The translations under genes were made by a program, and so were the position numbers. The notes beneath the pieces were generated by a model that saw only the letters and a program-made list of their open reading frames with translations, had not been told where the DNA came from and searched no databases. 64,000 bases of DNA from Candidatus Micrarchaeota archaeon. GTDB lineage: Archaea > Micrarchaeota > Micrarchaeia > Anstonellales > Anstonellaceae. The DNA is taken from contig JAKAME010000001.1 of assembly GCA_021813025.1 (NCBI GenBank), positions 2,201 through 66,200 on the forward strand, written 5' to 3'. This document shows positions 14,394 through 59,650 of the stretch, one piece after another. Position 1 is the first letter of the stretch, and every line of letters begins with the position of its first letter.

Positions 14394-16025
14394 CTATTTC
14401 GTTTCTTCTCCGGCATGCAGGCGCGCGTCCCAGAACACCATGCGGGCCAGCGGCGTCTGCCATGCGCGCGGCACCCCGAATTTGGAAAGTATTTTGCCGA
14501 ACACCGCCCTGTCCTCAGGCTCGAAAAGATGCAGCACGTTGACAAGCACAAGGTAGAGCAGGCTGCCCGCGCCCAAAAACACGCCAAGAACCGCCATCTT
14601 GATTAGCTTGTCCAGCACGCCGCCAAGCAGCGCGGAGTCGGGGATGATTATCGGGAGGTGGACCAGCGGGTCATAGGCCGCCAGCTCGATTAGCATGAGC
14701 ACTGCCAGCACCACGGCGCCCGCAAGCAGGTTTTTCCACGCGCTTTGGGGGAATGAGAAGCCCATGCGCCTGCTCGCGTAGTGGTGGTTGACCAGGCTCA
14801 TCACGCTGAAGGCTGCCAGGCTCGCCACGGCGGCGCCGTTGATGCCATAGGCGGGGATGAGCAGCAGGCAGAGCAGGACGTTGACTGCAGCGCCGCAAAT
14901 CATGGAGTAAAGCTCGATGCGCACCAGGCGCATGCCTGCCAGGGCCGTGCGCTGGATTGCGCCCATCGCGCTGGCGAGGGTGCCAAGGCTGAACAGCACC
15001 AGCACCCAGGCCCCTGCCTCGTAGCTGGCGCCATAGAGCGAGCGCAGGATGGGGGCCGCGAAGGCGCAGACGAAAGCCGCGATGGGAACGGAAGAGAACA
15101 GGGTCCAGCGCAGGGCGGTCTGTGACATGCGCTGCACGCGGGCGCGGTCCTCGCGGCCTATCAGTTCGGATACCACAGGCAGGAAGATGGGCGTGATGGA
15201 GCCTGCGAAAATCAGCACCAGGCCGGCGAAGCTGGAGGCTATGGTGTAGATGGCGATTTGGGGGTTTACGTCGCTGGACAGGTAATAGCCCAGCAGCACC
15301 CGGTCGGTGTAGGCAACGAAGTTGGAGAACAGCACCACGCCCACGATGGTGAGGCCGAAGGGGACCATCTCGCGCGCGATGGGCCAGTATGTTTGGAGCG
15401 GGAAGCGCGGATGCTGGCCCAGCGAGGACAGCGGCTTGAGCAGGGCCCACATCAGGTAGAAGCAGGGGATGACGAAGGAGAGCATGTAGGTGATGGAGAG
15501 CGAGCGGGCGTCCACGCCAAGGGTGAAGATGAGGGAGAGCAGCAGGAGGATTTTGAGCACGTTCTGCGCGCTGTAGCCCACAGAGTATGCGTGCAGCTGC
15601 TTGAAGGCGACCAGCAGGCTGAGCAAAATGTTGAATGCGGCGTAAATCGAGAGCTGGATGGCGAGCAGCTGCATCACGGGCCCGAGGCCGGGGTTGTGGA
15701 AGAAGGCGGCGAAGGCGTCCGCCAAGAGGAAAGTGGCTACGCTGCAGAGGGCCAGCAGCGCGGTGCCGGCCGTGACTGAGAAGCGGATGACCTGCTCGGC
15801 GACTGCCTTCTCCTTGCGGCCCAGATGGTAGGGGATGTAGCGCTGAATGGCGGTGGAAAGGCCGAAATCCGCGAAAATGCCCATGATGCCCACGATGCTG
15901 AGGCCGAAATAGAACAGCCCGACCTGCTCCTGCGCGGCGAGGCGGGCTACGAGTATGGTGTAGACAAAAGAGCAGAGCTTGACTATTATGCTGGAGAGGT
16001 TCTGCCACATCGTGCCCTTGGCCAT
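14394..16025 (-). CDS. Polysaccharide/oligosaccharide flippase (Wzx-like, MOP superfamily), 12+ TM
   Basis: Long hydrophobic protein with the Wzx-type topology. Start ambiguous (16010-16070). Confidence 0.7.
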   Translation of the reverse strand: MAKGTMWQNLSSIIVKLCSFVYTILVARLAAQEQVGLFYFGLSIVGIMGIFADFGLSTAIQRYIPYHLGRKEKAVAEQVIRFSVTAGTALLALCSVATFLLADAFAAFFHNPGLGPVMQLLAIQLSIYAAFNILLSLLVAFKQLHAYSVGYSAQNVLKILLLLSLIFTLGVDARSLSITYMLSFVIPCFYLMWALLKPLSSLGQHPRFPLQTYWPIAREMVPFGLTIVGVVLFSNFVAYTDRVLLGYYLSSDVNPQIAIYTIASSFAGLVLIFAGSITPIFLPVVSELIGREDRARVQRMSQTALRWTLFSSVPIAAFVCAFAAPILRSLYGASYEAGAWVLVLFSLGTLASAMGAIQRTALAGMRLVRIELYSMICGAAVNVLLCLLLIPAYGINGAAVASLAAFSVMSLVNHHYASRRMGFSFPQSAWKNLLAGAVVLAVLMLIELAAYDPLVHLPIIIPDSALLGGVLDKLIKMAVLGVFLGAGSLLYLVLVNVLHLFEPEDRAVFGKILSKFGVPRAWQTPLARMVFWDARLHAGEETK

Positions 16026-16111
16026 TACGGCCGTCTCCTCGTCAAGCTCCATAGCAAACCAAAGGGGCATAGCACGGCGACCTTTTAATAATCAAATCAC
16101 ATGATTCGGCC

Positions 16112-16660
16112 ATGAAGCTCCGCCTCTCTCCCACCCTCTCCTACCTCATAGGCCTGTGGAAGCACTGCCGCACGCGCGAGGGCATCGGCATAGTGGGAAA
16201 CGAAGCCATGCGCACGGCCTTCCTCTCCAAAGTGATTGAGGCCGGGCTCACTCCGGCCGACAAGGTTGTGGTGGAGGACAATGCAACCTATTTCCACCAC
16301 ACCGCCTACCGCGCGTTTTTTGAGGAAGTGCTGAAAGAGGAAACCGAGCGCTTCTGCCATGCGAATGATTTTTCCGCCGCATTCCTGGCCGGCCTCTATG
16401 ACGCCAACGGCGGGACGGAGAAGGGCAAGCTGTATTTGGGCAGATGGGACCAGCATGACGAGATGGTGCTGCTTAGGCTCAACTTCATGGCTGCAAAGGC
16501 TGGCGGGAGGCTCTGGGTGGGGCCTGCGGACGTGTTTTTGAAATTCACAAAGGAGTGGAGACAGGTGGACAGGCCGAGTGTGAGGGTGGAGAGGACGGAC
16601 AGGCGGGGCGAGAGGGGGCGAGGATTGGATAAAGAAGAAGGCTCTAAATATCCAGAATAG
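16112..16660 (+). CDS. Degenerate LAGLIDADG homing-endonuclease-like protein
   Basis: Motif LAGLYDANGG followed by KGKLYLG resembles a LAGLIDADG block with the second acidic residue replaced by N. A weaker first block SYLIGLW lies about 85 aa upstream. Confidence 0.4.
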   Translation: MKLRLSPTLSYLIGLWKHCRTREGIGIVGNEAMRTAFLSKVIEAGLTPADKVVVEDNATYFHHTAYRAFFEEVLKEETERFCHANDFSAAFLAGLYDANGGTEKGKLYLGRWDQHDEMVLLRLNFMAAKAGGRLWVGPADVFLKFTKEWRQVDRPSVRVERTDRRGERGRGLDKEEGSKYPE

Positions 16661-16741
16661 GCCGGATAGATGCGCCATCCACAGGTGTGGTAATAATACA
16701 AACGATATGTTTATATATCGCTTTGGGCAGAATAATAGACG

Positions 16742-17404
16742 GTGAGATTCATGACTTCCCCATGGACGCTGATGCAAAAACCACAGATGCCACCGCGAAA
16801 TCCACAAATGGCAATGGCGCAACGACCGAATGAATTGGTTCTTAGACAAAGTCGAGTTTTAACAAGACAAAATCCATTTTTAACAACCTTGGAAGGGCAC
16901 ATGAAACAAGAGGCAGGCCTGAAATTGGACTTAATACGTCAAAAGCTCTTACGTGGCGAATTTCATGATTACTTAGAAGTGCAAGCAACGACTCTGAGAT
17001 GGATAGAAGATTTAGATATGAACTTTAGAGGGATGGCGGTAGGACACGTAGCCGCCGACATTGCCAACAAATTTGCGCCTGACAGAACACAAATAATTGG
17101 TGACGAACTGAGGGTCATTGTAAAGAGAAACGCCCGCGGCTATACGCTGGATGAGGTTGCAAGGGAGTCTGCAAAACTTGGCAGGCAGCTTAAGCAGATA
17201 AAAATTGAAAAGGGCGCCAGTGTCAAATACGGGCTGTATTATGTTTTAGCCAAAAAGATTGACCAGCAAATGAGAAAGCGCACGAAAGAAAACATCTCCA
17301 GAGCACTAACAGGCATTAAGGAACTCGACAGCCTCATCGAGGATATTGAAAAGAAAATTGACGGCCTGTACATGCTTCCGAAAAGCGAGGGTTTGATTAA
17401 ATAA
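16742..17404 (+). CDS. Hypothetical protein in AT-rich islet
   Basis: ORF with a clear GC drop relative to its flanks. No recognisable family. Followed by a hairpin plus T-tract. Confidence 0.5.
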   Translation: MRFMTSPWTLMQKPQMPPRNPQMAMAQRPNELVLRQSRVLTRQNPFLTTLEGHMKQEAGLKLDLIRQKLLRGEFHDYLEVQATTLRWIEDLDMNFRGMAVGHVAADIANKFAPDRTQIIGDELRVIVKRNARGYTLDEVARESAKLGRQLKQIKIEKGASVKYGLYYVLAKKIDQQMRKRTKENISRALTGIKELDSLIEDIEKKIDGLYMLPKSEGLIK

Positions 17405-17405
17405 C

Positions 17406-17440
17406 GCGCAAAAACAAATGCGCGTATTTTATTTATTGCA
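17406..17440 (+). terminator. Candidate intrinsic terminator (hairpin cgcgca-aaaacaaa-tgcgcg followed by tattttattt)
   Basis: Perfect 6-bp inverted repeat immediately after the stop codon, followed by a T-rich tract. Confidence 0.45.
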
Positions 17441-17497
17441 TAGCGGGAGCCATGAGCGGCCACAGCACCAGAACCGATGATATGGGCAGCACGATTT

Positions 17498-19063
17498 CTA
17501 CTTTGTCACAATGAGCTGCGCATTCTTGCCCAGAAGCAGCACAAGCTCGCCCGGCTGGCCGCCCGGCACGGGATTTGACTTCACCCAATAGTCCACCATC
17601 GCGTCGCGCAAAGAGAGCAAGTCTCCGGGCTTGATGCCGTCCGCGCGCGGGGGCTGCACGTAAAGAGGCAGCTGGTGCTTGCCGTCTGAGAGAAGCAGGC
17701 GGTTGTAGGCCAGCAGCTTCTTGCCGTGCGGCACGGATACCACCATGTTGTCCAGAACTTCGAGCGGCAGGGTGGAGAGTTTCTTCAAGCCCGGCTTGAG
17801 GCCGGAGAGGTTCTCGATTCCCTCCTGGTGCGTGCGCTTGACAGCTATTTCAAAGGCAAGCTCGATGTCGGATTTTGCCTCCTTCATGAGCCTCTCCTTC
17901 TCCTTCTTTATTTCCGAGGCCTTGATGCCGGGCGTGAGCGCAATCGCATAGGCGAGCTTGTAGTAGTAGAGCGCGTGCCTCGGCATCTTCACGCCCTCCT
18001 CGTCCATTGACTGCGGCTCGGCAGGCTCCTCTGCCAGCATGGAAGGGATTGCGGCAGTCGGCGAGGGGGCTTTGGGCTGGAGGTATTCGGGGATGGGGAA
18101 ATTGGTGGCTTCCTCCATGCGGGATTGCATTGAAGGGGAGGAAGAGGAAAGGGACGGCTGGCGGGATGAGCCGGCCTCTGCCTGGCCAGAATAACCCGCG
18201 TGCGCGCCCCTCATTCGCCGCAATTCTTCCGGCGAGCGCAAATGCGCAGGCACGCCCACGTCTGCTTCGGCCTGCTCAAGCATGCTGGAGCGCGCAGCGC
18301 GGATGGCTTCCATGCCCGCCATCGGGTCGCGGGCGGGAATGGGAACCGATGCGGGAACAGCATCAGAGGAGTCGTCATCTCCTGCATCTTCCCCCTCAGC
18401 CTGCATCCGCGCAGCTTCCTCGGCCTGGGCAGCCCTGGCGCTCTCGGCCTGCTGGGCCCTTGCAGTTGCTTTCTCCTCGTCGCTCAGGTGCGCAGTAGCA
18501 ACCTGCTCGAAAGAGGGGCGTGAAGTGGAATGGCCTGCCTCGGCCGGGCGGGAGGCCGGAGTTTGGGAGGGCGCAGCCCCGCCGGGCGCGCCGGGCATCC
18601 ATGAAAACAGCTTCTCGATAGAGGGCAGAAGCCTGTCTCGCGCCGCCTTGTTTTTGGAGAAAAGGCGCTCAAGGGATGGAAGGAGCTTCTGGCGCGCCTC
18701 GGCCATGTCCGCGGGCGGAGGCTTGCCCTCCTGCCTTGCCTCGAAAATCTTCTCAAGGCTCACCAGAGCCTCCCTCTCCTCGCCCTTGAAGCTGTCAAGG
18801 GCTGCGCGCGCCATCTCCTGCACGCCAGGGTCCTTGTCTGCCCCCAATTCGAGCAGGGCGAACACCGCGCGCGGGTCGTCCAGCCCGGCCAGCTCCTGCG
18901 CCGCCCGGCGGCGCACGTCTGGGTTGGAATCATAGGTAAGGGAAACAAGCTTGTCTATACGGGCGCTCTCGTCCTGCGCGGGCGGAGGGGCGGGGGGGAG
19001 GTGGGACTGGCCTGCAGAGGCTGCGGCGCTGCCCTTTGTGCCTTTGCGCTCGCTCATGGCCAT
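17498..19063 (-). CDS. HEAT-repeat (PBS-lyase type) protein with low-complexity A/E/S-rich linker and uncharacterised C-terminal domain
   Basis: NPDVRRRAAQELAGLDDPRAVFALLELGADKDPGVQEMA HEAT-like repeats at the N-terminus. Confidence 0.65.
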   Translation of the reverse strand: MAMSERKGTKGSAAASAGQSHLPPAPPPAQDESARIDKLVSLTYDSNPDVRRRAAQELAGLDDPRAVFALLELGADKDPGVQEMARAALDSFKGEEREALVSLEKIFEARQEGKPPPADMAEARQKLLPSLERLFSKNKAARDRLLPSIEKLFSWMPGAPGGAAPSQTPASRPAEAGHSTSRPSFEQVATAHLSDEEKATARAQQAESARAAQAEEAARMQAEGEDAGDDDSSDAVPASVPIPARDPMAGMEAIRAARSSMLEQAEADVGVPAHLRSPEELRRMRGAHAGYSGQAEAGSSRQPSLSSSSPSMQSRMEEATNFPIPEYLQPKAPSPTAAIPSMLAEEPAEPQSMDEEGVKMPRHALYYYKLAYAIALTPGIKASEIKKEKERLMKEAKSDIELAFEIAVKRTHQEGIENLSGLKPGLKKLSTLPLEVLDNMVVSVPHGKKLLAYNRLLLSDGKHQLPLYVQPPRADGIKPGDLLSLRDAMVDYWVKSNPVPGGQPGELVLLLGKNAQLIVTK

Positions 19064-24138: not shown

Positions 24139-24252
24139 TGGGCCCGAAGGGATTTGAACTCTTGACCACCTGCTCTCCTCGAGAGCTCATCCGACAATCC
24201 GGACGAATCCACATATAAGACAGGCGCTCTAACCGGGCTGAGCTACGGGCCC
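24139..24252 (-). tRNA. Intron-containing tRNA (about 39-nt intron after position 37); positional anticodon UAU, so candidate tRNA-Ile(UAU)
   Basis: Reverse complement gives GGGCCCG-TA-GCTC-AGCCCGGTTA-GAGC-G-CCTGT-CTTATA[intron]A-GCAGG-TGGTC-AAGAG-TTCAAAT-CCCTT-CGGGCCC-A. U33 and purine 37 are in place. One A-C mismatch in the T stem. Confidence 0.65.
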
Positions 24253-30335: not shown

Positions 30336-31884
30336 ACTCGCCGGCTTTGTCAACAAGCTGATAAGGCGGGAGGAGGACAAGGCGCCAGTGCAGGCGCCAG
30401 TCGTTCCCTCGGAACCTGTTTCTTCTCCTCCGAAAAAGGAGGAACCTGCGCCAATCGTAAAAGTGGAGCCAAAAAAAATAGAAACTCCAAAGCCGGCTCA
30501 GAAAGTTGCGCCAATTATTTCCGCGCCAAAACCTGTTGAGAAGCCCGCGCCGGTTATTTCCATTCCCCAACCGAAGCCGGCCGAGAAAGCAGCGCCTCCT
30601 GTCTTTGTTCCAGAGCCGAAGCCCGCTCCAAAAATTGAGCCCGTTGTTTCCATGCCGGCTCAGAAGCCTGTTGAGAAACCAGCGCCTCCAACCCCTGTTT
30701 CGGAACCCAAGAAAAACATCCTTTCATCAATCTGGCCGTTTGGCGGAAAAAAGGAGGAAAAGAAAGTTCCTGCGCCGCAGCCGGCGCCTAAACCTATTCA
30801 AACAAGCTCGCCGGCTGTGATGCCTGAGCCAAAGAAAGAAGGGCCTGCCCCGGCAATGAAGACTGCCCAGACCATAGCCGCTTCCCCTGCCATCACAACT
30901 GCCGCAAAACCAATCGAAACCGCCCCTGAAATCGATGACGCAGGCTTGGCGCGCTTGGAGAAAAAATCAATGTCTGATGCCGAGCGCGAGATGAAGGTGA
31001 GGATGGGGCTTGGAAAATCCATGCTTGGCTTCATCGCGCCAACAGTAACTATAGAGGAAAACGACGTGCGCGACTTGCTTGACGAGCTTGAGCTGTCGCT
31101 GCTTGAATCAGACGTGGCTGTTGAGGTTTCAACTGAGGTGACCAAGCGCCTGCGCTCCACTCTTGTTGGCATGAAAGTAGGCAAGAATGAGATGCAGGAG
31201 GAAGTGCAGAGGCAGCTGCGGATGGTCCTGACAGATGTCATGACTTCGGCCAGCGCCTTCAACTTCCTTGAGAGAGTGCAGCAGAAGCCAAGGCCCGTGA
31301 AAATCCTTTTCGTAGGCCCAAATGGGGCTGGCAAGACCACCACAATGGCCAAAATAGCCCATCTGCTGATGGAGGCAAGGCTGAGTGTTGTATTTGCGGC
31401 AGGAGACACATTCCGTGCGGCAGCAATTGAGCAGACCGAAGTGCATGCCAAGCGCTTGGGCATACCAGTGGTCAAGTCAAAATACGGCGCAGACCCCGCC
31501 TCGGTGGCTTGGGATGCGGTGAATTACGCGAAAGCGCACCAGACAGACGTCGTGCTGATTGATTCGGCAGGCAGGCAGGACACCAACGCCAACCTGCTGG
31601 ACGAGCTGAAGAAGATAAACAGGGTAATTTCGCCTGACTTGAAAATCTACATAGGCGAGAGCATAGGAGGCCATGCTCTGATGGAGCAGGTGCGCGCATT
31701 CCATGAGGCCATTGGAATAGATGGCGCAATTCTCACCAAGCTTGACTGCGACGCAAAAGGCGGCACGGCTCTTTCACTTACGCATGCCACCGGAGTGCCC
31801 ATCCTCTACTTGGGCACGGGGCAGGGCTATGAGGATTTGGAAAAGTTCGATGCAGACAAGGTGGCTGGGCAGATACTGACGTGA
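30313..31884 (+). CDS. ftsY: Signal recognition particle receptor FtsY with long P/K/E-rich repetitive N-terminal region
   Basis: NG domain: FVGPNGAGKTTT, DTFRAAAIEQ, DSAGR, TKLD. Confidence 0.9.
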   Translation: MFGLLKDKLAGFVNKLIRREEDKAPVQAPVVPSEPVSSPPKKEEPAPIVKVEPKKIETPKPAQKVAPIISAPKPVEKPAPVISIPQPKPAEKAAPPVFVPEPKPAPKIEPVVSMPAQKPVEKPAPPTPVSEPKKNILSSIWPFGGKKEEKKVPAPQPAPKPIQTSSPAVMPEPKKEGPAPAMKTAQTIAASPAITTAAKPIETAPEIDDAGLARLEKKSMSDAEREMKVRMGLGKSMLGFIAPTVTIEENDVRDLLDELELSLLESDVAVEVSTEVTKRLRSTLVGMKVGKNEMQEEVQRQLRMVLTDVMTSASAFNFLERVQQKPRPVKILFVGPNGAGKTTTMAKIAHLLMEARLSVVFAAGDTFRAAAIEQTEVHAKRLGIPVVKSKYGADPASVAWDAVNYAKAHQTDVVLIDSAGRQDTNANLLDELKKINRVISPDLKIYIGESIGGHALMEQVRAFHEAIGIDGAILTKLDCDAKGGTALSLTHATGVPILYLGTGQGYEDLEKFDADKVAGQILT

Positions 31885-33137
31885 AAAGGGGCTATGGCGC
31901 TGCCAAAGGCGCCTTCCGCGGGGCCGCCGCCACTTTAATTAACCTCCTCCTCCAACCCACCATCATGACGGTCCGCCTCGAGCAGATTGTCCCCCGCGCG
32001 GTGCTTGAGCAGGTGCACCGGATAAACGAGCAGCCGGGGGAAGGCTACTTTTCCTCCGGCGCGCCAGTGCGCAGAAACGCAGGCTTTGGCGGCGAAACTT
32101 CCCGCTTCACTGAGCTGGAAAACGGCCAACTGGCCGGCGCGCCCGCCGAGGACGGCATGCCTCCGCTGCCAAGCCTTGACTTCATAGCCCCGCCGCCCAT
32201 GCCAAACCCGCTGGCGCAGCAGGGGCTGGCCGAGGTGGGAATTGCCCGCAGCTTCATGGAACAGGTGGAGCGCCGCCTGATTGAGAAAAGCAGGCACGGG
32301 GCGCCCAAACCTTGGCTTACGCCCACCCGCACGCCTGACGAGGAAATAGCCGAGCGCCTGGCGCCATCCATCAGCCAGGCGGCAGGGGCGGTGGCGCAAT
32401 GGCTTAATCAGGACTGCAACGGCAACATGGCATTGATGCAGAGGGTGCTGGACCGCTTCTGGGCCAAATGGGCCGTGGAGCGCTTCGCCAGCCCGGATTT
32501 GAGCAGCTTGCTTATGATGGCGTATGAAGAGGTGCTGTCTGAAGAGGGAGGCAAGCCTGTGCAGGGCTTGGAGAGCTGGCCTGCTTTGCGCATAGAGCCT
32601 GCGGTGCTGAGGCCCCTGAGCGAGCCCATGGCTGTGAGCGTGCAGACCCAGCAGATACTTCTTGCCACCCGCCACGGGCCGGAGAGGCCTGATGAGGGGG
32701 GCGGGCAGGAGCCTGCCTCAATTGCGGGAGTGCAGCCGGCCATAGGCCCAAGGCGGGAGGATGAAGTGGAAGTGCGCCTTGTTTCTGTGCGCGAGATGCT
32801 GCGCAGATATTTCCAAGGCAGGCCTGCCGAATACGCGGCCGCTCTGGCTGGCGCGCTTGATTTGGAGAGGGGCAACTGGAACGCCTCGCTGATTGGCGCG
32901 CGCCTGAGCAGCGAGCGCTCGCGTGTTGGCGCTGCGGGCGTGTGCATAAAGCTTTGGCAGGTGGTGCGCGGCAGGCACAGCACGCCTCCGCGCAAGCCTC
33001 AGGAGGTGGCCGCATGGGGGGCGGCTCCATTGGAGGAGCCGATGGTGTGGGAGCTTGCGCCGCGCTGGCTGCCCCTTGACTTGGGGCAGAAGCTGCGCCT
33101 GCTCATGGGCTGGATTGAGCAGAGCGAGGCAGGATAA
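31881..33137 (+). CDS. Hypothetical protein (GTGA-coupled to ftsY)
   Basis: 418-aa ORF with no recognisable family. A competing antisense ORF exists, so the coding strand is not certain. Confidence 0.4.
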   Translation: MKRGYGAAKGAFRGAAATLINLLLQPTIMTVRLEQIVPRAVLEQVHRINEQPGEGYFSSGAPVRRNAGFGGETSRFTELENGQLAGAPAEDGMPPLPSLDFIAPPPMPNPLAQQGLAEVGIARSFMEQVERRLIEKSRHGAPKPWLTPTRTPDEEIAERLAPSISQAAGAVAQWLNQDCNGNMALMQRVLDRFWAKWAVERFASPDLSSLLMMAYEEVLSEEGGKPVQGLESWPALRIEPAVLRPLSEPMAVSVQTQQILLATRHGPERPDEGGGQEPASIAGVQPAIGPRREDEVEVRLVSVREMLRRYFQGRPAEYAAALAGALDLERGNWNASLIGARLSSERSRVGAAGVCIKLWQVVRGRHSTPPRKPQEVAAWGAAPLEEPMVWELAPRWLPLDLGQKLRLLMGWIEQSEAG

Positions 33138-34828: not shown

Positions 34829-35068
34829 GAGGATTACCTAGATTTTTCGCCGAGTGAGCCAGTCGCGCGCGGCAGCCAGCGGGCTTGCCGGGCCTGACAT
34901 CACGCGGTATTGGCGCGTCGGGAGTTGGGCTTGAATGATTTTAAAGCGCATGGACGGCTCGGACGTCGGAAAAGAGCGGGATGGAAAAGATGGAGGGGAG
35001 GCACGGCGAAGGGAAACCTGGCCGGGATGGCCCGCTCTTTTTGCTTTTTTATTTTTTCGCGCAGCCAT

Positions 35069-35902
35069 TCATTTCACCCTCTGTATCCTGCCGGCCTTGC
35101 AAAGCTTGTCCAGCGCGTCCTCCACCCGCTGGCCGCCCACGCCAAGCGAGCGGGCCACCTCGCGGATGCTCATCGAGCCGTCATGAGCGCGCAGCCATTC
35201 CATAAGCTCCTCCTCAAGCACCGAATCCGGCAGGTGCTCGAGATGGCGGATGCGGGCCTGCAGGGACTGGATGGCCTGCGCATCAAGCAGGGCGCGCTTG
35301 GCATCAGCCTCGCGCTGCGCTTCCATCGGCCTTATGCGGGCCTGCAGCTCCTTGAGCTGCTTTCCCATGGCCTCGAGCTGGAGATGCATGGCCTGCGAGT
35401 CTTCGGAAACAAGAGCCAGCGCGTCAGAGAGAGCCTGAGAGAGGTGGCGGCTGAATTCGCCGGAGGCAGGCATTGCGCCGGAGGCCGAGAGGGTGAGCAA
35501 GAGCAGATGCCATGCCTGCAGCCGCCGCACGGCAGGATGCTGGTCCGCTCTGCGCGTGTATTCGGCCTCCGCGCCCCTGCGCGAGAGGCGCAGGCGGATG
35601 AACTGGTGAGGCCTGCCCTGCAAATCCAGCGCTTCGGCCAGCTCAAGCAGCAGGCCGTCGCGCGATTGCGAGAGGCTGCTGAAGCCCAAGTCGGCAAGAC
35701 CGGATGCCCACTGCTGCGGGGAGCCCGCCAAATTTAGCGGGACTGAGAAGTGCTCTGCTGAGACATCGGCCGGCGAGCCGGAGGGAAGCAAGCGGCGAAG
35801 CTGGTCTGCAAGAGGCTGGGCTGGGTCCGGGAGGGAAGAAGGAACAGACATTGATTGGATGTCTGCGGGTGCGAGGCCTGGCTTAGTTCTTTTTTGGCTC
35901 AT
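35069..35902 (-). CDS. Coiled-coil protein with C-terminal winged-helix DNA-binding domain
   Basis: C-terminus SIREVARSLGVGGQRVEDALDKLCKAGRIQRV is wHTH-like. Central heptad-like region. Start may be at 35851. Confidence 0.5.
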   Translation of the reverse strand: MSQKRTKPGLAPADIQSMSVPSSLPDPAQPLADQLRRLLPSGSPADVSAEHFSVPLNLAGSPQQWASGLADLGFSSLSQSRDGLLLELAEALDLQGRPHQFIRLRLSRRGAEAEYTRRADQHPAVRRLQAWHLLLLTLSASGAMPASGEFSRHLSQALSDALALVSEDSQAMHLQLEAMGKQLKELQARIRPMEAQREADAKRALLDAQAIQSLQARIRHLEHLPDSVLEEELMEWLRAHDGSMSIREVARSLGVGGQRVEDALDKLCKAGRIQRVK

Positions 35903-37490
35903 CAGACACCTCGATTAAGACCAGTTCGTTTGGCGACACGCCAAGCGAGCGAGCGGCAAGGCGCGAGAAGAGGGACACCAGCGGCTCCTCAGGCACGCCA
36001 ATGCCGCGCATGAATGAGAGAATTACCGAGCGGCTCAGGCCCCAGCCAAGCAGCAGGCGGGCCAGCTCGTCGGCAGCCAGCGTGCGGTCGGCACGCTCGA
36101 AAGCATCGCACACCTGGCTGATTTGCGGGTCGGTAAGCCCGAGGCGCCAGAGGCGCTTGCGCAGCACTTCACGCTCCACTTCAATGTCCATGTCACCCAC
36201 CCTCATAATGAACGATCTGGCCGGCTCCTCCCCCTCGATTCGCACAAGGAATGGCGCGGCAGCCTCGTCCGGCCTGTCCCAGCCCAAGCGCAGCAGGGCG
36301 CAGCCCACCGGCAGGCGCTCCAGCTCGTCCGACAGCCCCTGCGGAATCTGCAATGACTGGCGCAAGGATTCGCGATACTCATGCAGACTAAGCCTGAAGG
36401 CAAGAAGGGTGCCCGCGTTTGAGAAAATCGTCTTGGAAAGGTCTGTCGGGTTCTGGCTGGCCACTATGAGGCCGAAGGCGTATTTGCGCCCCTCGCGCAG
36501 GATTGCGACCAAATCCGAGCGCTCGTCCTGCGCGATTTTCCATGCCTCGTCCGCCACAACCAGCAGGCGCAGGGAGCGGCTCGCGCTCCAGCCTGACGAG
36601 CGCATGCGCTCCTTGAGCATTTGCAATATTGTGAGGCCGGCCAATGAGCGGTGGGCTTCGTGCGGCAGGCCGGAGAGGTCGACAGACACCACGCCGCTGC
36701 CTATGAGGTCGTCAAGGCGCAGGCCGCCGGAGCGGGAGAAATAATCCGCGCCTGGCGGGCAGAAGAATTCGAGGGTGGAGATGGCCAGCATCAGCTCCTC
36801 GTCATCCTTGCTCTTTTTGGCCCGCTTTTTGAGCAGGATGAGGGCATCACGCAGGGTGGGCAGGCGCGATGAGGATAGCGAAGCCTTGAGAGGCTTGTCC
36901 GGCGCGAGTCTGCGGCGCTTGAAAGACTCCTGCATCACTTCCTGCAGAATTCTTGCGGCGCGCGGATGGCCGTCAAGCCCGCCGAGGATTTTGAAAGATT
37001 CCACAAGCTGCTCGATGCGGAAGCGGGGGGTGTGGGCAAAGGGTGAGTGGGAATAGGGATGGGCAGGGGCGGTTTCATTTTTTCTTTTTCTCTTCTCTTT
37101 CTTTTCCGGCCTGCAGTCCAGCACGTTGAGGCCCGCGCCGCGCGCAAGCGGCACTACCCTGCCGCCCGCCTGCTCCACCCAGGGAGTGTATTCTCCTGCC
37201 CAGTCAAGAATTAGCGAGGGAGTTGCCCACTGATGCCACGCCCGGGTGATGAATGCCTTGATGAAATAGGATTTGCCGCTGCCTGTCATGCCTACCACTG
37301 CCAGGTGCGGGTTGGCCAGAGTGTGGAAGTCCCAATAGACAGGCACTGCCATCAGGCGGCTGCGGCCCAGATAAAGGCCGGCATCGGAGGAGGCGAGAAG
37401 GAGGTGGGCAGGGGGCTCGGGCGGACGCACCCAGATGCGCCTGCGCGCGAGGTCGCGGCTGTAAAGGGATTGGGGCTGCAAAACGCTCAT
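35883..37490 (-). CDS. HerA/FtsK-superfamily ATPase (DUF87-like) with C-terminal extension
   Basis: Walker A AVVGMTGSGKSYFIK, Walker B LLVVADEAWK, sensor ASQNP. Confidence 0.75.
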   Translation of the reverse strand: MSVLQPQSLYSRDLARRRIWVRPPEPPAHLLLASSDAGLYLGRSRLMAVPVYWDFHTLANPHLAVVGMTGSGKSYFIKAFITRAWHQWATPSLILDWAGEYTPWVEQAGGRVVPLARGAGLNVLDCRPEKKEKRKRKNETAPAHPYSHSPFAHTPRFRIEQLVESFKILGGLDGHPRAARILQEVMQESFKRRRLAPDKPLKASLSSSRLPTLRDALILLKKRAKKSKDDEELMLAISTLEFFCPPGADYFSRSGGLRLDDLIGSGVVSVDLSGLPHEAHRSLAGLTILQMLKERMRSSGWSASRSLRLLVVADEAWKIAQDERSDLVAILREGRKYAFGLIVASQNPTDLSKTIFSNAGTLLAFRLSLHEYRESLRQSLQIPQGLSDELERLPVGCALLRLGWDRPDEAAAPFLVRIEGEEPARSFIMRVGDMDIEVEREVLRKRLWRLGLTDPQISQVCDAFERADRTLAADELARLLLGWGLSRSVILSFMRGIGVPEEPLVSLFSRLAARSLGVSPNELVLIEVSDEPKKN

Positions 37491-37502
37491 GCGCCATTCC
37501 CC

Positions 37503-38294
37503 CTAGAACGTCTGGTCCTCCAGCTCTTCCTTGCTCATGGGAATCCATTTCTGCCATTCTGCCGCGCGCAAGAATTCTTCGCCTCGCAGGGGTGCTACTG
37601 AGCATGAAAGCGAACCGGACAGCACGGCCGAGGCTTCCTGCGCCTGCGAGCGGGCGCGCTGCAAAGCCTCCTCGCGCGTGAGGCCGGCGGCGGTGGTGAG
37701 AGCCCATGCCGACACCTTCATCGGCCGCTCTCCTCCCGTGAGGCGGCGGATTTGGGCATTGCATGACTCGATGTCGCGCTCCAATTTGGCCGCCTCGTCA
37801 GAATCCTTCTGCCCCCGCAGGCGCGCGCGCCGATGCTCTGCCAGGCTGCGGCGCTCCTCCAGACGCTGGATTTGCTGTGAAGTGTCAAGCGGGCACACCA
37901 GAAGAGTGAGCGAGAGAGGATAGCGCAGGCCTCCAATCGCCTTCTCGAACAGCTCCATCATCAGAGCCTGCTGCCCCTGCGTGGAGAGAGTGGCCGAGTC
38001 GCGAAGCTGCACGCCCAAGCACACGCTGGCCCGCCAGCCACCCGAAGTGCGCTGCAGCATCACATCTTGTGAGGGGGGGAATTCGCAGTCTCCTTCAGAC
38101 ACGCGCAGGCGGGAGGCGGAGGCAAGGGCAGGGCCCAGCATCCAGCCAAGGCGCCACACAAGAAGGGAGAGAAAGAAGAGGAGAGCTGCGGGAAGAAGAG
38201 CCAGAGGCTCGCCCAAAACCCAGGCGGCTGCCATGCAGAGCAGCCCGCCCGCCAATCCGGCGAGGGTGATGGATTTGTTCGATGCCGCATCCAT
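37503..38294 (-). CDS. Membrane protein (2 N-terminal TM helices + coiled-coil soluble domain)
   Basis: Hydrophobic LAGLAGGLLCMAAAWVLG and LALLPAALLFFLSLLVW. 12-nt spacing to the ATPase gene. Confidence 0.55.
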   Translation of the reverse strand: MDAASNKSITLAGLAGGLLCMAAAWVLGEPLALLPAALLFFLSLLVWRLGWMLGPALASASRLRVSEGDCEFPPSQDVMLQRTSGGWRASVCLGVQLRDSATLSTQGQQALMMELFEKAIGGLRYPLSLTLLVCPLDTSQQIQRLEERRSLAEHRRARLRGQKDSDEAAKLERDIESCNAQIRRLTGGERPMKVSAWALTTAAGLTREEALQRARSQAQEASAVLSGSLSCSVAPLRGEEFLRAAEWQKWIPMSKEELEDQTF

Positions 38295-38304
38295 GAATGG
38301 GACC

Positions 38305-38934
38305 TTAGAGCAGTATGCGCACGTCCGTGCTGGGCGAGCTTTGCGCCACAAGGCGCTTGAACTCGGCCGGGTCTATGCGCAGGTCTGAGAGGTAATTGTA
38401 ATGATACGGGACGACTACCTTGGGCTTGATGTCAGCCACTGCCGAGGCAGCCTCGGCCATGTCCATCGTGTAAGTGCCGCCTATGGGCAGGATGGCCACG
38501 TCGCACTTGTAGCCTGCCATCTCTTGTATGCGGTCGGTGTCTCCTGCAACATAGACGCGCACGGGCGGAGAGGAGCCGAAAGCGAGTATGTATCCAACCC
38601 CTGTTCCGCGCGGATGGAATTGCTTGCTTGGATTGTAGGCCTGCACCGCCTGTATTGTGATTGAACCCAGTTTGAAAGACTGGCCGGGCGAGACTGACTG
38701 GCCCGGATGCTTGCAGCTTGGGCTGGCGATGAGCGTGGTGTTTGGCTTGAGGATTGATGGGGCGGGAACGCAATGGTCGAAATGGCCGTGGGTGTGAAGC
38801 ACAAGGTCGGCGGGCTTGGCGCCCCGCGGCAAAACATAGGGGTCTACATAGATGACTAGGCCCCCGTACTCGAAAGAAACGCTGGAATGCCCATGGCAGG
38901 TGATTCGCACGCCGCCGACGGTGGTGGTGTTCAT
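38305..38934 (-). CDS. Metallo-beta-lactamase-fold hydrolase (UPF0173-like)
   Basis: HTHGHFDH metal-binding motif. Confidence 0.8.
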   Translation of the reverse strand: MNTTTVGGVRITCHGHSSVSFEYGGLVIYVDPYVLPRGAKPADLVLHTHGHFDHCVPAPSILKPNTTLIASPSCKHPGQSVSPGQSFKLGSITIQAVQAYNPSKQFHPRGTGVGYILAFGSSPPVRVYVAGDTDRIQEMAGYKCDVAILPIGGTYTMDMAEAASAVADIKPKVVVPYHYNYLSDLRIDPAEFKRLVAQSSPSTDVRILL

Positions 38935-39002: not shown

Positions 39003-39338
39003 CTAAATCCCGCGCTCGCTGAAATCCGAATCCTGCCCGCCGACCGCCACGAAATGAATCGGCATGAGGGCGTCCAGCGGATTGCCCAATTTCGGCGAGG
39101 CTCCGGCCTGAGGCTCGTAATACACCATCTCGCGGCCGCGCTGCACCACGTGCGAGAGTATGCGCCCGTCAGGCTCTGTAACTGTAAGAGTGGTTGTGCC
39201 GGGGCCGACGCCTATGTTGATTATGCGCTTCTGCTTGCCCACCTCAACTGAGAAGGAGTGGAAGGCGCCGTTCTGCGAGACTGAGATGCGCTTGACCTTG
39301 GTCCAGTCGACCTTGGAGAGGAAGGCGCGCAAATCCAT
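39003..39338 (-). CDS. Hypothetical small protein
   Basis: ORF trimmed to MDLRAFLSKV. No family recognised. Confidence 0.35.
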   Translation of the reverse strand: MDLRAFLSKVDWTKVKRISVSQNGAFHSFSVEVGKQKRIINIGVGPGTTTLTVTEPDGRILSHVVQRGREMVYYEPQAGASPKLGNPLDALMPIHFVAVGGQDSDFSERGI

Positions 39339-39339
39339 C

Positions 39340-39570
39340 TTAAGCCCTCCGATGGCGGGGTGGCGAGGCGGGCGCGTAGCGCGCTGCTTTGTCTGCAAAA
39401 TCCTCGATGAATTTGAGGGTGGGCGCAAAAGTCGGGCTTTTTGGCGTGAGCTCGGTTGTTTTTGTGACATGCACGCCTGCAAGTTTGAGGGTGTCTGGGG
39501 CCAGCTCGGCCTGCTCAAACGCCTTGCGCGCCTCTTGCGCGGCTTTCTTTCCAACGGGAGCCGGAACCAT
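39340..39570 (-). CDS. Hypothetical small protein
   Basis: ORF from MVPAPVGKKAAQEARKAFEQ. Directly upstream of 39003-39338 and possibly co-transcribed. Confidence 0.3.
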   Translation of the reverse strand: MVPAPVGKKAAQEARKAFEQAELAPDTLKLAGVHVTKTTELTPKSPTFAPTLKFIEDFADKAARYAPASPPRHRRA

Positions 39571-55962: not shown

Positions 55963-57045
55963 TCACACTTCAAATTCAAACATGTCGCCTTCCTTTTCCT
56001 TTAGGCGGATGAGGGCCTTGGCGACCTGCTCGTCTGTCAGATGCAGGCCCAGAGCGTCGGACAAATATCTTACCACGTTCTTGCCGGAATACTCGCCCAC
56101 CACCACGCGCCGGCGTATACCCAAAGAGGTTGGGGAGAAAGCCTCATAGGCCTTGCCATCGGTTCGCAGCACCGCGCCCAAGTGGGTTCCTCCCTTGTGG
56201 CGGAATACGTTTTCTCCGACTATGGGGCTGAAGGGGTCGGCCGGAAGGCCGGTGATGGATGAGAAAAGGCGCGAAAGCTTCGGAAGCTCGACTGCCTTCA
56301 TCTCGTTTCGCTGGCCATAGAGCACTTGGAGAGCCATAACCACTTCGGCCAAGCGCGGGATGCCTGCGCGCTCTCCCGCGCCGTTGATGGAGGCGTGGAT
56401 GCAGTCTGCTCCGGCTTCTATTCCAGCCAGCGAATTTGCAAGCGCAAGGCCCAAGTCATTGTGGCAGTGCAAATCTAGGCCAATGTTTGGAAGGGCGGCG
56501 CGCACGTGGCGGATGAGGGCATGCATGCTCGAAGGAGTCATGATGCCGACAGTATCAGTAATAGATATTCTATCCGCTCCCGCCTCGGCCGCCACTTTGG
56601 CAAACTGCATCAGCTCCTCCATGTTGGTTCTTGACGCATCCTCGCATGTGAAGCGCATTTTCACCCCATGGCTTTTGGCATACTCAATCATTTTTCGCGT
56701 CTGCTCCAAGGCAGCTTGCCTGTCCATGTGCAGCTTGTGCTCCAGATGAACCGGGGAGGTGGAGAGGTAGATGGCAATCCATTGGGGGTCGAATTTGAGC
56801 AGGAGGTCGATATCGGATTGGGTGGCTCTTCCGTGGAGGATGACATTGGAGCGGAAGCCTGCTTGCAAGAGGTCTTTGGCTGTCTGCTCGCTTCTCTGGC
56901 TCACTATTGGAGAGTATTCGATGAAATCCACACCCAAGGTGTTGAGGCCGTGGGCTATCTTGAGCGCCTGCTCGGGGCTGAAACGCACTCTTGTGGCCTG
57001 CGCGCCCTCGCGCAGGGTGGAATCTAGCACCAGAATGTTTTGCAT
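55963..57045 (-). CDS. Homocitrate synthase / 2-isopropylmalate synthase family (short form without LeuA regulatory domain)
   Basis: DTLREGAQ N-terminus. HxH metal motif LHCHNDLGLA. About 360 aa. Confidence 0.85.
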   Translation of the reverse strand: MQNILVLDSTLREGAQATRVRFSPEQALKIAHGLNTLGVDFIEYSPIVSQRSEQTAKDLLQAGFRSNVILHGRATQSDIDLLLKFDPQWIAIYLSTSPVHLEHKLHMDRQAALEQTRKMIEYAKSHGVKMRFTCEDASRTNMEELMQFAKVAAEAGADRISITDTVGIMTPSSMHALIRHVRAALPNIGLDLHCHNDLGLALANSLAGIEAGADCIHASINGAGERAGIPRLAEVVMALQVLYGQRNEMKAVELPKLSRLFSSITGLPADPFSPIVGENVFRHKGGTHLGAVLRTDGKAYEAFSPTSLGIRRRVVVGEYSGKNVVRYLSDALGLHLTDEQVAKALIRLKEKEGDMFEFEV

Positions 57046-57411
57046 AAGTTGGAATGAGGCTGGCTTTAATTAAATACTAAATGTTGCAGGTATAACAAAA
57101 TAAGATGAGGAGGAACGGACGGACTGATACCTTTTCGTTAGCCTGACCGACGGGGTTGTTTGGCTGATGACGAGTTTTGGACTAGTGAAACTTCGACACG
57201 CCCCTAAAAGAAAACGAAAGACGCGGAAATCATAGGAAACCACGGGAGAAAACCAGAACTGTTCGATAGTTTAAAACGTTCCTACTGCAATTTCTGTCAG
57301 ACTATGGATATCAAGATAACGCAGATAACCAAAATAGAGTGCAAACAGTGCGGGAAAACGAGATTGATAACAACAAGGATAAAATAACCTCAAGAACGGA
57401 TAAGTGATTGA

Positions 57412-58056
57412 ATGGCAAAAGTAATTGAAAAAAGAGAGGTAATAATCGCAGGAGTAGGTGCAGGTCGCATGATTTTATCCGAGATTGCAGACTGTGCGCA
57501 TGAATTCGGGGGCGGTAGATTACCTGCTGTATTGTATGATACACATATGGGAGGTATCGCGTGCGCCAAATCGCCGACTAAAGGCGTTTTAATCGGCAAA
57601 GAAATCTTTGGAGGGAGCGGTGCGTTTGGAGAAATTAAAAAATGCAGAATTTCCGCCTTAAAAGAACGGAAAAAGATTGGCGATGCAATTGCAGGTTCAA
57701 AAGTTGTAATCGTTGTGACATGTCTTGGAGGCGGCACTGGATCCGGCATTGCGCCGGTTGTGTGCGATATTGCAGGCAAACAAGGCGCATTTGTGATTGC
57801 GGTTGCCACTTATCCTGCGAAGTGTATCCCTAAGACATGGAAAAAATGCAGAGAGATGGCAGAAACAGGGCTGGATGGACTCAAAAAACATGCAGACGTT
57901 TTGATGATAGTGGATAGTGAAAAGATACGCAGGCATATGGAAAAAAATACCGAGTGGCCGGATTTGTGTTTGGTTTGTAATCGTATTGCGGCAAGGATGG
58001 TCTGGGACATATGCAAGGGTAAGGGCTTACAGCAAGTGTGGGATGCAAAGGATTGA
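57412..58056 (+). CDS. Tubulin/FtsZ-superfamily GTPase-domain-only protein (214 aa, lacks the C-terminal T7 domain)
   Basis: T1-like IAGVGAGRMILSEI. Tubulin signature VVTCLGGGTGSGIAPVV (GGGTGSG). FtsZ-like ADVLMIVDSEKI block. Confidence 0.5.
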   Translation: MAKVIEKREVIIAGVGAGRMILSEIADCAHEFGGGRLPAVLYDTHMGGIACAKSPTKGVLIGKEIFGGSGAFGEIKKCRISALKERKKIGDAIAGSKVVIVVTCLGGGTGSGIAPVVCDIAGKQGAFVIAVATYPAKCIPKTWKKCREMAETGLDGLKKHADVLMIVDSEKIRRHMEKNTEWPDLCLVCNRIAARMVWDICKGKGLQQVWDAKD

Positions 58057-58088
58057 CAACTGAGAAGGAAAATATCGAGGACAAGAAA

Positions 58089-58700
58089 ATGAACGACTCT
58101 GACGAAAATTTTTATAAATGCGGCACGCCCATGTCCAAACGGCATAATGAACGATGTAAAGAGTGCAAAACGCGGGTTTTCCAGCTACTATGTGGGCTAT
58201 TCGGAGAAGTAAAACGTGAGCATAATTTGGGGATTAGCAGCGGTTTAGATTCGTTCGAGCATTCCACAAACTATGCTCACTTGAGTAACATCCTCCATAT
58301 GCTTCAGGAATATCGTGGCTACAACAACTTCGTCAGAAGAAGGCGGATGACCAATGTGGATTTTTTTGTTCCCGCCCACGGGCTTATCGTTGAATTCGAT
58401 GAATCCCAACACTTCACTAAACCCCGTCAAATCGCGTTAGATAACTATCCTGCCGACCTCAAACTTGGATTTAATCGGAAACAATGGGTTGAACGATGCG
58501 TGCATCTGCATAAGACGGACAACGACCCGCCCTACCGCGACGAGACACGGGCATGGTATGACACATTGAAGGACTTTGCGCCGTCAATCCTCGATTTGAA
58601 GCCTACCGTTCGTTTATACTCCAAAGATTGTGTTTGGTGCGAATTGGATCTGGGGAATAGCGGAAACATAGCGGAGTTCAAGAGGAGGTTGGGCGTATGA
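58089..58700 (+). CDS. Zinc-ribbon protein with Vsr/DUF559-like (PD-(D/E)xK-related) nuclease-fold motif
   Basis: YKCGTPMSKRHNERCKECK zinc ribbon. VDFFVPAHGLIVEFDESQHF resembles the D...(I/V)E(V/F)DGxxH core of restriction-endonuclease-like proteins. Start ambiguous (58038 or 58089). Confidence 0.4.
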   Translation: MNDSDENFYKCGTPMSKRHNERCKECKTRVFQLLCGLFGEVKREHNLGISSGLDSFEHSTNYAHLSNILHMLQEYRGYNNFVRRRRMTNVDFFVPAHGLIVEFDESQHFTKPRQIALDNYPADLKLGFNRKQWVERCVHLHKTDNDPPYRDETRAWYDTLKDFAPSILDLKPTVRLYSKDCVWCELDLGNSGNIAEFKRRLGV

Positions 58701-59530: not shown

Positions 59531-59650
59531 CCCATAAACGAGAGCAGCCCTAGGGACACCTCCCTCATTTCCGCGTCTTGGGCTGTTTTAGGCGTTTTTC
59601 GCGTAGCTCAGGCAGACGAGTTCTCTCCTAACGGACGGACTGCCATCCCT

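Follow-up and report, generated by a model that had tools for sequence, protein, structure and literature searches.

A 64-kb stretch of Micrarchaeota DNA, which we refer to as the window, carries at positions 35069-38294 of its minus strand a set of three genes identified from a listing of its open reading frames (ORFs; Table 1). The genes encode, in order of transcription, a membrane protein, a P-loop ATPase, and a third protein with a predicted coiled coil and a winged helix (wH). Public gene calls match all three products (263, 535, and 277 aa), which are either unnamed or labelled "DUF87 domain-containing". A gap of 12 nt separates the stop of the membrane gene (37503) from the ATPase start (37490), and the ATPase gene shares its last 20 nt (35883-35902) with the third gene, which confirms the initial annotation of this DNA as an uncharacterised operon of three co-directional genes with 12-nt and overlapping junctions. 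An alternative TTG start would extend the membrane ORF by 19 codons (37503..38351). The genes are real, far beyond chance, because the ATPase has hundreds of full-length homologues with 35-80% identity and the triad is syntenic in ~80 other loci. Nearly all of the named ATPase homologues are labelled Micrarchaeota, which places the window in the chromosome of an archaeon of the Micrarchaeota (DPANN); an NCBI record with a 98% identical membrane protein carries the label Marsarchaeota.

Table 1. Features of the three-gene set and of the genes that directly adjoin it, in coordinates of the 64-kb window.
Feature	Position	Strand	Length or residues	Remarks
Membrane subunit	37503..38294	-	263 aa	From ATG; no Pfam or NCBIfam family; ORF and identical public gene call
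Two predicted transmembrane helices (hairpin)	38121..38273	-	~res 8-58	Hydrophobic helices ~8-28 and 30-58
Soluble alpha/beta domain, predicted fold like the VirB4 N-terminal domain	37506..38087	-	res 70-263
ATPase subunit	35883..37490	-	535 aa	ORF and identical public gene call
Walker A, GMTGSGKS	37269..37292	-	res 67-74	G67, G70, G72, K73, S74 invariant in 30 homologues
Walker B, LLVVADEAWK	36537..36566	-	res 309-318	D314, E315, A316, W317, K318 invariant in 30 homologues
ATPase C-terminal helical domain	35886..36185	-	~res 436-535	Two helix-loop-helix repeats; AlphaFold2 helices, family-wide
Third subunit (coiled coil/winged helix)	35069..35902	-	277 aa	ORF and identical public gene call
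Predicted coiled coil	35228..35425	-	~res 160-225
Winged-helix domain	35072..35215	-	res 230-277
Metallo-beta-lactamase (MBL)-fold metal-dependent hydrolase	38305..38934	-		10 nt upstream of the membrane gene
Small ORF	34838..35068	-	76 aa	Exactly between the third gene and pheT

The top Pfam match of the ATPase is DUF87 (2.8e-14), followed by AAA_10 (1.6e-08). Its Walker A and B motifs are present and invariant across the homologues, in agreement with their earlier description as canonical, and the Walker B stretch aligns with the Walker B region of TrwK, the VirB4 protein of the R388 type IV secretion system (T4SS). When an AlphaFold2 (AF2) model of the ATPase (predicted local distance difference test score, pLDDT, 82.7) was compared with the PDB using Foldseek, it matched the C-terminal domain (CTD) of Thermoanaerobacter VirB4 (4ag5) with a target-normalised TM-score of 0.80 and a root-mean-square deviation (rmsd) of 3.4 Å, and the DndH C-domain with a TM-score of 0.77; scores against HerA chains were ~0.4-0.57, with 0.55-0.57 for Sulfolobus HerA (4d2i). 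With hhalign, and a VirB3+VirB4 profile built from nine plasmid systems (9 sequences), residues 29-490 of the ATPase align to the C-terminal half of VirB4 (probability 98.5%, E 2.4e-15) over 392 columns that reach the VirB4 C-terminus. The VirB4 N-terminal domain (NTD; CagE_TrbE_VirB, PF03135) is not on this polypeptide, which begins ~60 residues before Walker A. In searches with VirB4, CedB, and HerA models, of the kind proposed earlier as a check, CedB, CedD, and the CD1110 VirB4-like family are the top NCBIfam matches at the level of domains, with the similarity to CedB and CedD confined to the Walker B-to-sensor region, and no curated threshold is reached. By these comparisons the ATPase, a P-loop motor of the FtsK/HerA superfamily, resembles the C-terminal half of VirB4 more than it does HerA proper, and we hold this part with more confidence than the interpretation of the whole operon given below.

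The DUF87 match, DUF87 being the central domain of HerA, together with weak NCBIfam HerA matches of 36-39 bits, might instead point to a divergent HerA-type helicase for DNA-end resection whose nuclease partner is encoded elsewhere. We find this scarcely credible. The HerA equivalog cut-offs of 800-970 bits are missed by far (39 against 970 bits for NF040819), the structural match to HerA is poorer than that to VirB4, and the obligatory partner is membrane-anchored. Neither the alignment of homologues nor the AF2 model contains a HAS barrel, for which there is no room because Walker A begins at residue 67, and none of the genes adjoining the triad, the only part of the window examined in this respect, is NurA, Mre11, or Rad50. 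The initial annotation was thus right to set the operon apart from the classical HerA-NurA module; its HerA/DUF87 label holds for the DUF87 domain and the superfamily, and not for HerA itself.

Two further elements of the ATPase are conserved across the family. The motif RRxxVRPPEP at its N-terminus is invariant, and the helical domain at its C-terminus is found also as a stand-alone ORF (~98 aa) after the ATPase gene in some loci of the type B operon described below. Similarities of this domain to EF-hand pairs, a Topo V helix-hairpin-helix-like region, and the NOD2 wH are weak and were taken as noise.

The membrane subunit has Kyte-Doolittle windows above 1.5 at residues 8-55 and AF2 helices at residues 3-27 and 30-60. 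Both termini are predicted to lie on the same, cytoplasmic side, because the protein must meet a cytoplasmic ATPase. A VirB3-like hairpin joined to a VirB4 NTD was predicted from the sequence pattern before any fold search was made, and in a Foldseek search of the PDB with the AF2 model (pLDDT 78) each of the nine matches at or below an E of 0.013 is a TrwK/VirB4 chain from the T4SS of R388 (7o42, 7o43, 7o41, 8rtb, and 8rtd). These matches have E values from 9e-5 to 1e-2, seven of them at E <= 0.001, with a probability of 1.00 over 173-190 columns; the match that comes next has an E of 0.09. A profile search of PDB sequences gave coiled-coil noise only, and no signal came from an hhalign comparison of the membrane-protein profile with TrwK by itself. 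The membrane subunit looks like a VirB3-like hairpin fused to a soluble domain resembling the VirB4 NTD, and our confidence in the NTD assignment, based on a predicted model, is lower than that in the reading as a whole. The small two-helix membrane protein of the initial annotation therefore keeps its two helices and is no longer a generic partner.

Taken together, the first two genes would encode one VirB4 in two pieces. Among the best 150 of 196 clusters matched by the membrane domain in a HMMER search of 1.84 billion representative proteins, we saw no fusion to an ATPase; the matches are ~240-280 aa or shorter fragments, save one partial match of 466 aa. The split therefore looks like a fixed trait. 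Natural fusions of VirB3 to VirB4 are found in IncX and Campylobacter plasmids.

An alignment of 29 members shows that the third protein consists of a variable disordered N-terminal tail, a conserved domain of ~100 residues, a predicted coiled coil of ~65 residues, and a C-terminal wH. The best PDB sequence match of the wH is to that of the ESCRT-III protein CdvB (2xvc, E 4.9e-4), along the entire length of which the C-terminal 46 residues align, and EAP30 (the EAP30/Vps36 wH of ESCRT-II) is the Pfam family matched by most members (17/29). Lrp/AsnC-type helix-turn-helix proteins score nearly as well as 2xvc (~5e-3), and because these DNA-binding domains score almost equally the wH of the third protein may bind either DNA or protein. 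On the single sequence HTH_24 reaches 18.9 bits against a cut-off of 21.9 and MarR_2 is also sub-threshold, so the earlier description of a winged helix stands at the level of profiles and not of the individual sequence. There is no ESCRT-III (Snf7) core in the third protein (13.1 against 370 bits for the NF041008 CdvB model). The coiled coil is predicted solely from weak matches to coiled-coil families and chains (FlxA, ZapB, APG6_N). When the third protein was compared by hhalign with TrwJ/VirB5 and TrwG/VirB8, no similarity emerged.

An FtsK-like, membrane-anchored DNA pump or division-coupled machine, which would clear or segregate chromosomal DNA at the closing septum and be tethered to the division apparatus by a coiled-coil protein with a CdvB-like wH, would account for several of these features: the ATPase is a membrane-anchored member of the FtsK/HerA superfamily, the wH of the third protein is closest to those of CdvB and ESCRT-II EAP30, coiled-coil matches include weak ones to ZapB and DivIC, and the genes occur phylum-wide in a housekeeping context. 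However, the coiled-coil matches are compositional, and the FtsK_SpoIIIE match of the ATPase (PF01580) is below threshold (23.4 against 24 bits) and limited to the Walker A region (residues 45-82). The ATPase has no FtsK gamma (KOPS-binding) wH, its C-terminal domain being helical with no match to a wH family, and the fold and profile matches favour VirB4. The paralogous operons are also linked to pilin-like, six-transmembrane (6-TM), and large surface proteins that a segregation pump would not need, and two to three paralogous systems per phylum would be unusual for a division factor. We consider a septal pump distinctly improbable.

The conservation of the three genes was determined by a scan of species-representative genomes, which gave more than 411 relatives and from which 80 loci were kept, and by iterative hidden Markov model searches over all ORFs of the loci (84 sources). 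The membrane gene is directly upstream of the ATPase gene in 77/84 sources and a homologue of the third gene is downstream in 81/84, so that the neighbourhood comparison proposed with the initial annotation finds both partners syntenic with the ATPase. The three proteins also have pairwise distances that correlate with one another (r = 0.88-0.92 over 64 loci, paralogues included). The triad is conserved in ~80 Micrarchaeota loci that fall into three operon types. Type A, to which the window belongs (12 loci), has the order MBL hydrolase, membrane subunit, ATPase, third gene, small ORF, and pheT. In type B (~40 loci) the membrane subunit and ATPase are followed by, in some cases, an extra C-domain ORF, and then by a zinc-ribbon protein with two transmembrane helices, the third gene, and a protein of ~860 aa. 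Type C (~28 loci) begins with a two-transmembrane (2-TM) protein of ~80 aa and a 6-TM protein of ~320 aa, and continues with the membrane subunit, ATPase, third gene, and purD.

Eight genomes contributed two loci each, and the pair is always type B with either A or C, which suggests that the other two types are a single paralogue in different positions. No second copy of the ATPase lies within the 64-kb window. The module adjoins pheT/ftsY/prefoldin, purD, or ribosomal-protein genes, and is chromosomal, vertically inherited, and duplicated as a whole unit. That it exists as paralogous operons, with pilin-like and 6-TM genes in other copies, goes beyond anything in the initial annotation. The two additional type B proteins are always present: the zinc-ribbon protein has a CxxC...CxxC pattern (for example L018:8560-9180, where L numbers denote the loci), and the ~860-aa protein, which has no Pfam match, combines a large extracytoplasmic part with two transmembrane segments, one around residues 80-115 and the other around 610-640 (for example L014:3910-6489). 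A GT4 glycosyltransferase gene often follows the type B operon.

In a tblastn search of 72,556 plasmids the ATPase gave distant P-loop matches, with identity of <=39% among the matches listed and none covering 80% of the query, which argues against recent acquisition from a plasmid; PHROGs gave generic FtsK/terminase-like P-loop matches and no viral context. These results bear on a second proposal of the initial annotation, that of a HerA-based defence system, here taken as one directed against phage, with the ATPase as the scaffold for an effector. PADLOC models for HerA, DndH, and mad8 do match the ATPase domain (best 1.6e-23), and PDB sequence matches include Sir2-HerA and DUF4297-HerA complexes, but these similarities cover the shared P-loop core only, and a HAS barrel, as noted above, is missing. 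The genes beside the ATPase include none for Sir2, DUF4297, a nuclease, or another effector, the partner proteins have no PADLOC match, and there are no close relatives on plasmids or viruses. The pheT/ftsY gene order is kept across distant genomes, indicating vertical inheritance across the phylum and the opposite of a variable defence island. The proposal thus finds no support in the gene neighbourhood, and we regard it as very improbable.

Genes for a 2-TM pilin-like protein and a 6-TM protein lie immediately upstream of the module in type C operons and in the distant relatives L085, L094, and L096. In the distant relatives (L085, L094/L095, and L096) the order is pilin-like, 6-TM, membrane subunit, and ATPase; one of these loci adjoins an archaeal ribosomal-protein operon, and L094 also has, after its ATPase gene, a homologue of the third gene. 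Several members of the pilin-like family have a signal peptide. Four of five members match T4SS_pilin and two of five TrbC/VirB2 in Pfam, all below threshold, a precomputed match to T4SS_pilin (PF18895) is also weak, and hhalign against mature TrwL gives a probability of 62% (E 7.5e-5). The similarity to T4SS pilins is weak but repeated at the sequence level, and we use the term pilin-like in this sense. In type C, L085, L094, and L096 the gene for the 6-TM protein (310-370 aa) directly precedes that for the membrane subunit, and the size, topology, and position of this protein are the sole basis on which it might be called VirB6-like. Homologues of VirB5 and VirB8-11 were not seen in the loci inspected, for which no systematic search was made.

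Some of these loci have further complexities. L043:160-6990 and L055, both type-B-like, contain five to six tandem 6-TM paralogues followed by two tandem membrane-subunit genes and one ATPase gene, arrays that recall the VirB2 gene arrays reported in Patescibacteria. At the operon end in L085 (5518-7734) there is a second, 738-aa HerA_C-like P-loop ATPase, a possible analogue of a coupling protein.

VirB4 acts in pilus biogenesis, and the module could be a motor for a pilus or other surface filament and nothing else, extracting pilins in the manner of VirB4 for attachment to a host and moving neither DNA nor other cargo. The pilin-like gene is the most consistently linked extra component, type B carries the ~860-aa surface protein with its large extracytoplasmic part, and the loci inspected showed neither a relaxase nor a coupling protein (again with no systematic search). 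It is difficult to reconcile this explanation with the window-type operon, which has no pilin gene in cis, or with the wH protein, which is present in every copy and would be left unexplained; furthermore, the related Ced system imports DNA (PMC9905601, PMC11868833). We judge a dedicated filament motor to be unlikely.

The interpretation that we favour, and consider reasonably probable, is that the operon specifies a motor at the cytoplasmic face of a minimal translocation apparatus, T4SS-derived and of the Ced/Ted kind, in which VirB4 is split and which has become fixed in the Micrarchaeota chromosome. A Ced/Ted-like machine was among the suggestions of the initial annotation, and it fits the resemblance of the ATPase to the VirB4 CTD, the syntenic triad, and the pilin-like and 6-TM genes beside the paralogues. 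Gene 1 would provide a VirB3-like membrane hairpin and the VirB4 NTD, and gene 2 the C-terminal ATPase of VirB4 with an extra helical domain; we infer that both halves form a complex and assemble into a VirB4-like oligomer at the inner face of the membrane, where the RRxxVRPPEP motif at the ATPase N-terminus may be the site at which the product of gene 1 docks. That of gene 3 may serve as an adaptor peculiar to this lineage, either by holding nucleic acid or by recruiting a further protein. Powered by ATP hydrolysis, the motor would extract pilin-like subunits, move macromolecules through a polytopic channel, or do both. By analogy with Ced and Ted the substrate may be DNA, and our confidence in this or any other statement about cargo is lower than that in the motor assignment as a whole. 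The channel and pilin genes adjoin the paralogous copies and not that of the window, which may use parts encoded elsewhere in the genome or have a diverged role.

Several observations weigh against a split VirB4 motor. The NTD assignment comes from one predicted model with modest overlap (TMq 0.36-0.38, rmsd 7-9 Å), for which the aligned TrwK residues were not reported, and searches of Pfam (including PF03135), NCBIfam, and PADLOC with the membrane protein, singly and with 31 members, found nothing meaningful. The top hhalign alignment of the membrane protein with the VirB3+VirB4 profile is collinear with the VirB3 transmembrane region and the VirB4 NTD, and is not significant (probability 1-2%, P 0.025-0.06). 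The ATPase misses the cut-offs for CedB (69.4 against 700 bits), CedD (57.7 against 600), TIGR00929 VirB4_CagE (25.5 against 643), and NF045971 CD1110 (49.1 against 325). The 6-TM family has no detectable similarity to Pfam families, PDB sequences, or, by hhalign, TrwI/VirB6, and the lack of a relaxase, here also of a VirD4-type coupling protein, among the loci inspected (with no systematic search) counts on this side as well. No pilin-like, 6-TM, or other partner gene is present in the 64 kb around the window copy, so that this paralogue may do something else. Finally, the third protein has no counterpart in any T4SS and its wH is closest to protein-binding wH domains of the ESCRT type.

The genes around the triad are mostly of a housekeeping kind. 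An MBL-fold hydrolase is encoded immediately upstream, as had been annotated, with matches to Lactamase_B_3 (1.8e-25) and, under the NCBIfam cut-off, a PRK00685-like family (1.4e-28). Its gene is upstream in 11/12 type A loci and absent from type B and type C operons. We considered the hydrolase as a component of the system and rejected this, since it is restricted to the pheT-adjacent operon type (12/81 typed loci); it is probably a mere neighbour. An ORF farther upstream (39003-39554, minus strand), whose true start is probably at MDLRAF (~110 aa), is kept only in the two closest relatives (L004 and L006) and has a borderline Pfam match to T2SS-T3SS_pil_N (23.5 bits against a cut-off of 23) that may be due to chance. 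Beyond the MBL gene there are aminotransferase-like and transketolase-like ORFs, named from their translations only.

Downstream of the triad are the 76-aa ORF, pheT, a gene for a 418-aa protein, ftsY, and a prefoldin gene. The product of the 76-aa ORF has a Lys/Arg-rich tail and a core of the form [MY][RK]F[KL]I...Y.[VF]; most pheT-adjacent loci that were examined show these features in the same place, and the ORF, which has no match in Pfam or PHROG, is possibly a fourth gene of this operon type. The 418-aa protein (31881-33137, plus strand) has no family match in Pfam, NCBIfam, or PADLOC, and several Micrarchaeota loci keep a homologue of 331-373 aa between pheT and ftsY. Elsewhere in the window, a 114-nt tRNA called by Rfam (24139-24252, minus strand; 54.8 bits) and not by ARAGORN is probably an intron-containing archaeal tRNA. 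The local G+C content dips to 0.52 at 16000-18000 and to 0.47-0.51 at 56000-60000, compared with ~0.58-0.63 elsewhere in the window.

DPANN archaea have tiny genomes and depend on hosts, and how material passes between the partners is a long-standing open question. If the split VirB4 interpretation is correct, a chromosomal, duplicated, phylum-wide machine derived from a T4SS would be a testable candidate for traffic between DPANN archaea and their hosts. A broader proposal is that the module and its paralogues form a conduit through which DNA, nucleotides, or other macromolecules are obtained from Thermoplasmatota hosts, as the DPANN counterpart of the Patescibacteria T4SS, with the wH protein as a new adaptor for substrates or for membrane remodelling; we put this forward tentatively, any symbiotic role and the direction of transport being steps that we infer, and think it rather doubtful as a whole. 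In the literature searched on Micrarchaeota or DPANN and VirB4, CedB, HerA, DUF87, or ESCRT we found no description of the module, and it appears to be undescribed so far. The interpretation would extend the domesticated archaeal relatives of the T4SS (Ced and Ted) beyond Thermoproteota, add a third way of dividing VirB4 between polypeptides, and introduce a partner with a coiled coil and an ESCRT-type wH that is new to secretion systems. It also offers provisional roles for several families now labelled "hypothetical" or "DUF87".

Among known systems, HerA (in HerA-NurA and in the Sir2 and DUF4297 defence complexes) shares with the Micrarchaeota ATPase the FtsK/HerA P-loop superfamily and the DUF87 domain, but the latter has a membrane-anchored partner in place of a HAS barrel and a nuclease or effector, and misses the HerA equivalog cut-offs by >700 bits. 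CdvB and ESCRT-II EAP30 resemble gene 3 in its terminal wH and differ in that gene 3 has no ESCRT-III core; no Vps4 or CdvA was noticed near the module. VirB4-like domains have also been noted in SPEARE proteins of nanohaloarchaea (PMC10266531).

The likeness to VirB3/VirB4 (TrwM/TrwK of R388) is more extensive. It includes the C-terminal ATPase domain, in both fold and profile, the significant fold matches of the soluble domain of gene 1 to TrwK only, a 2-TM hairpin anchor resembling VirB3 (which is itself naturally fused to VirB4 in some systems), and the pilin-like and polytopic membrane genes beside the Micrarchaeota paralogues. Unlike in VirB3/VirB4, the NTD and CTD would lie on separate Micrarchaeota proteins, the ATPase ends in an extra helical domain, and there is an additional coiled-coil/wH subunit; the module is also chromosomal and vertically inherited rather than plasmid-borne, and meets no curated VirB4 threshold.

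A chromosomal T4SS is essential in epibiotic Patescibacteria (PMC12102498), which, like Micrarchaeota, are ultra-small and host-dependent and retain the system on the chromosome despite genome reduction. In the Patescibacteria (candidate phyla radiation, CPR) system a separately encoded protein, TrsD, is associated with virB4 and remotely related to the VirB4 N-terminus, which is one precedent for a VirB4 NTD on a protein of its own, and there are arrays of VirB2-like genes (PMC12102498); the tandem arrays in Micrarchaeota consist of 6-TM and membrane-subunit genes. The Patescibacteria T4SS differs in being bacterial, of the MPF-FATA type, with a full-length VirB4, and in having been shown by experiment to be essential.

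Ced and Ted are DNA-import systems of archaea, chromosomal and domesticated minimal T4SSs in which a VirB4-like ATPase is combined with a polytopic channel and a pilin of the VirB2 kind (PMC9905601). Both the Ced (CedA/A1/A2/B/D) and Ted (TedA/B/C) systems are from Thermoproteota, and CedB and CedD, the top NCBIfam matches of the Micrarchaeota ATPase, provide a precedent for a divided VirB4, with the equivalent of the VirB4 NTD shared between the two proteins (PMC11868833). The division is made differently, since Ced has two ATPases that each carry part of the NTD and the Micrarchaeota module would separate NTD from CTD. Its occurrence in DPANN archaea, the conserved wH/coiled-coil partner, and the two to three paralogous operon types are further differences from Ced and Ted, as is the lack of channel and pilin genes in cis in the window copy. 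Set beside these systems, the module is not a new kind of machine, but a phylum-wide and hitherto unannotated candidate for traffic between DPANN archaea and their hosts.

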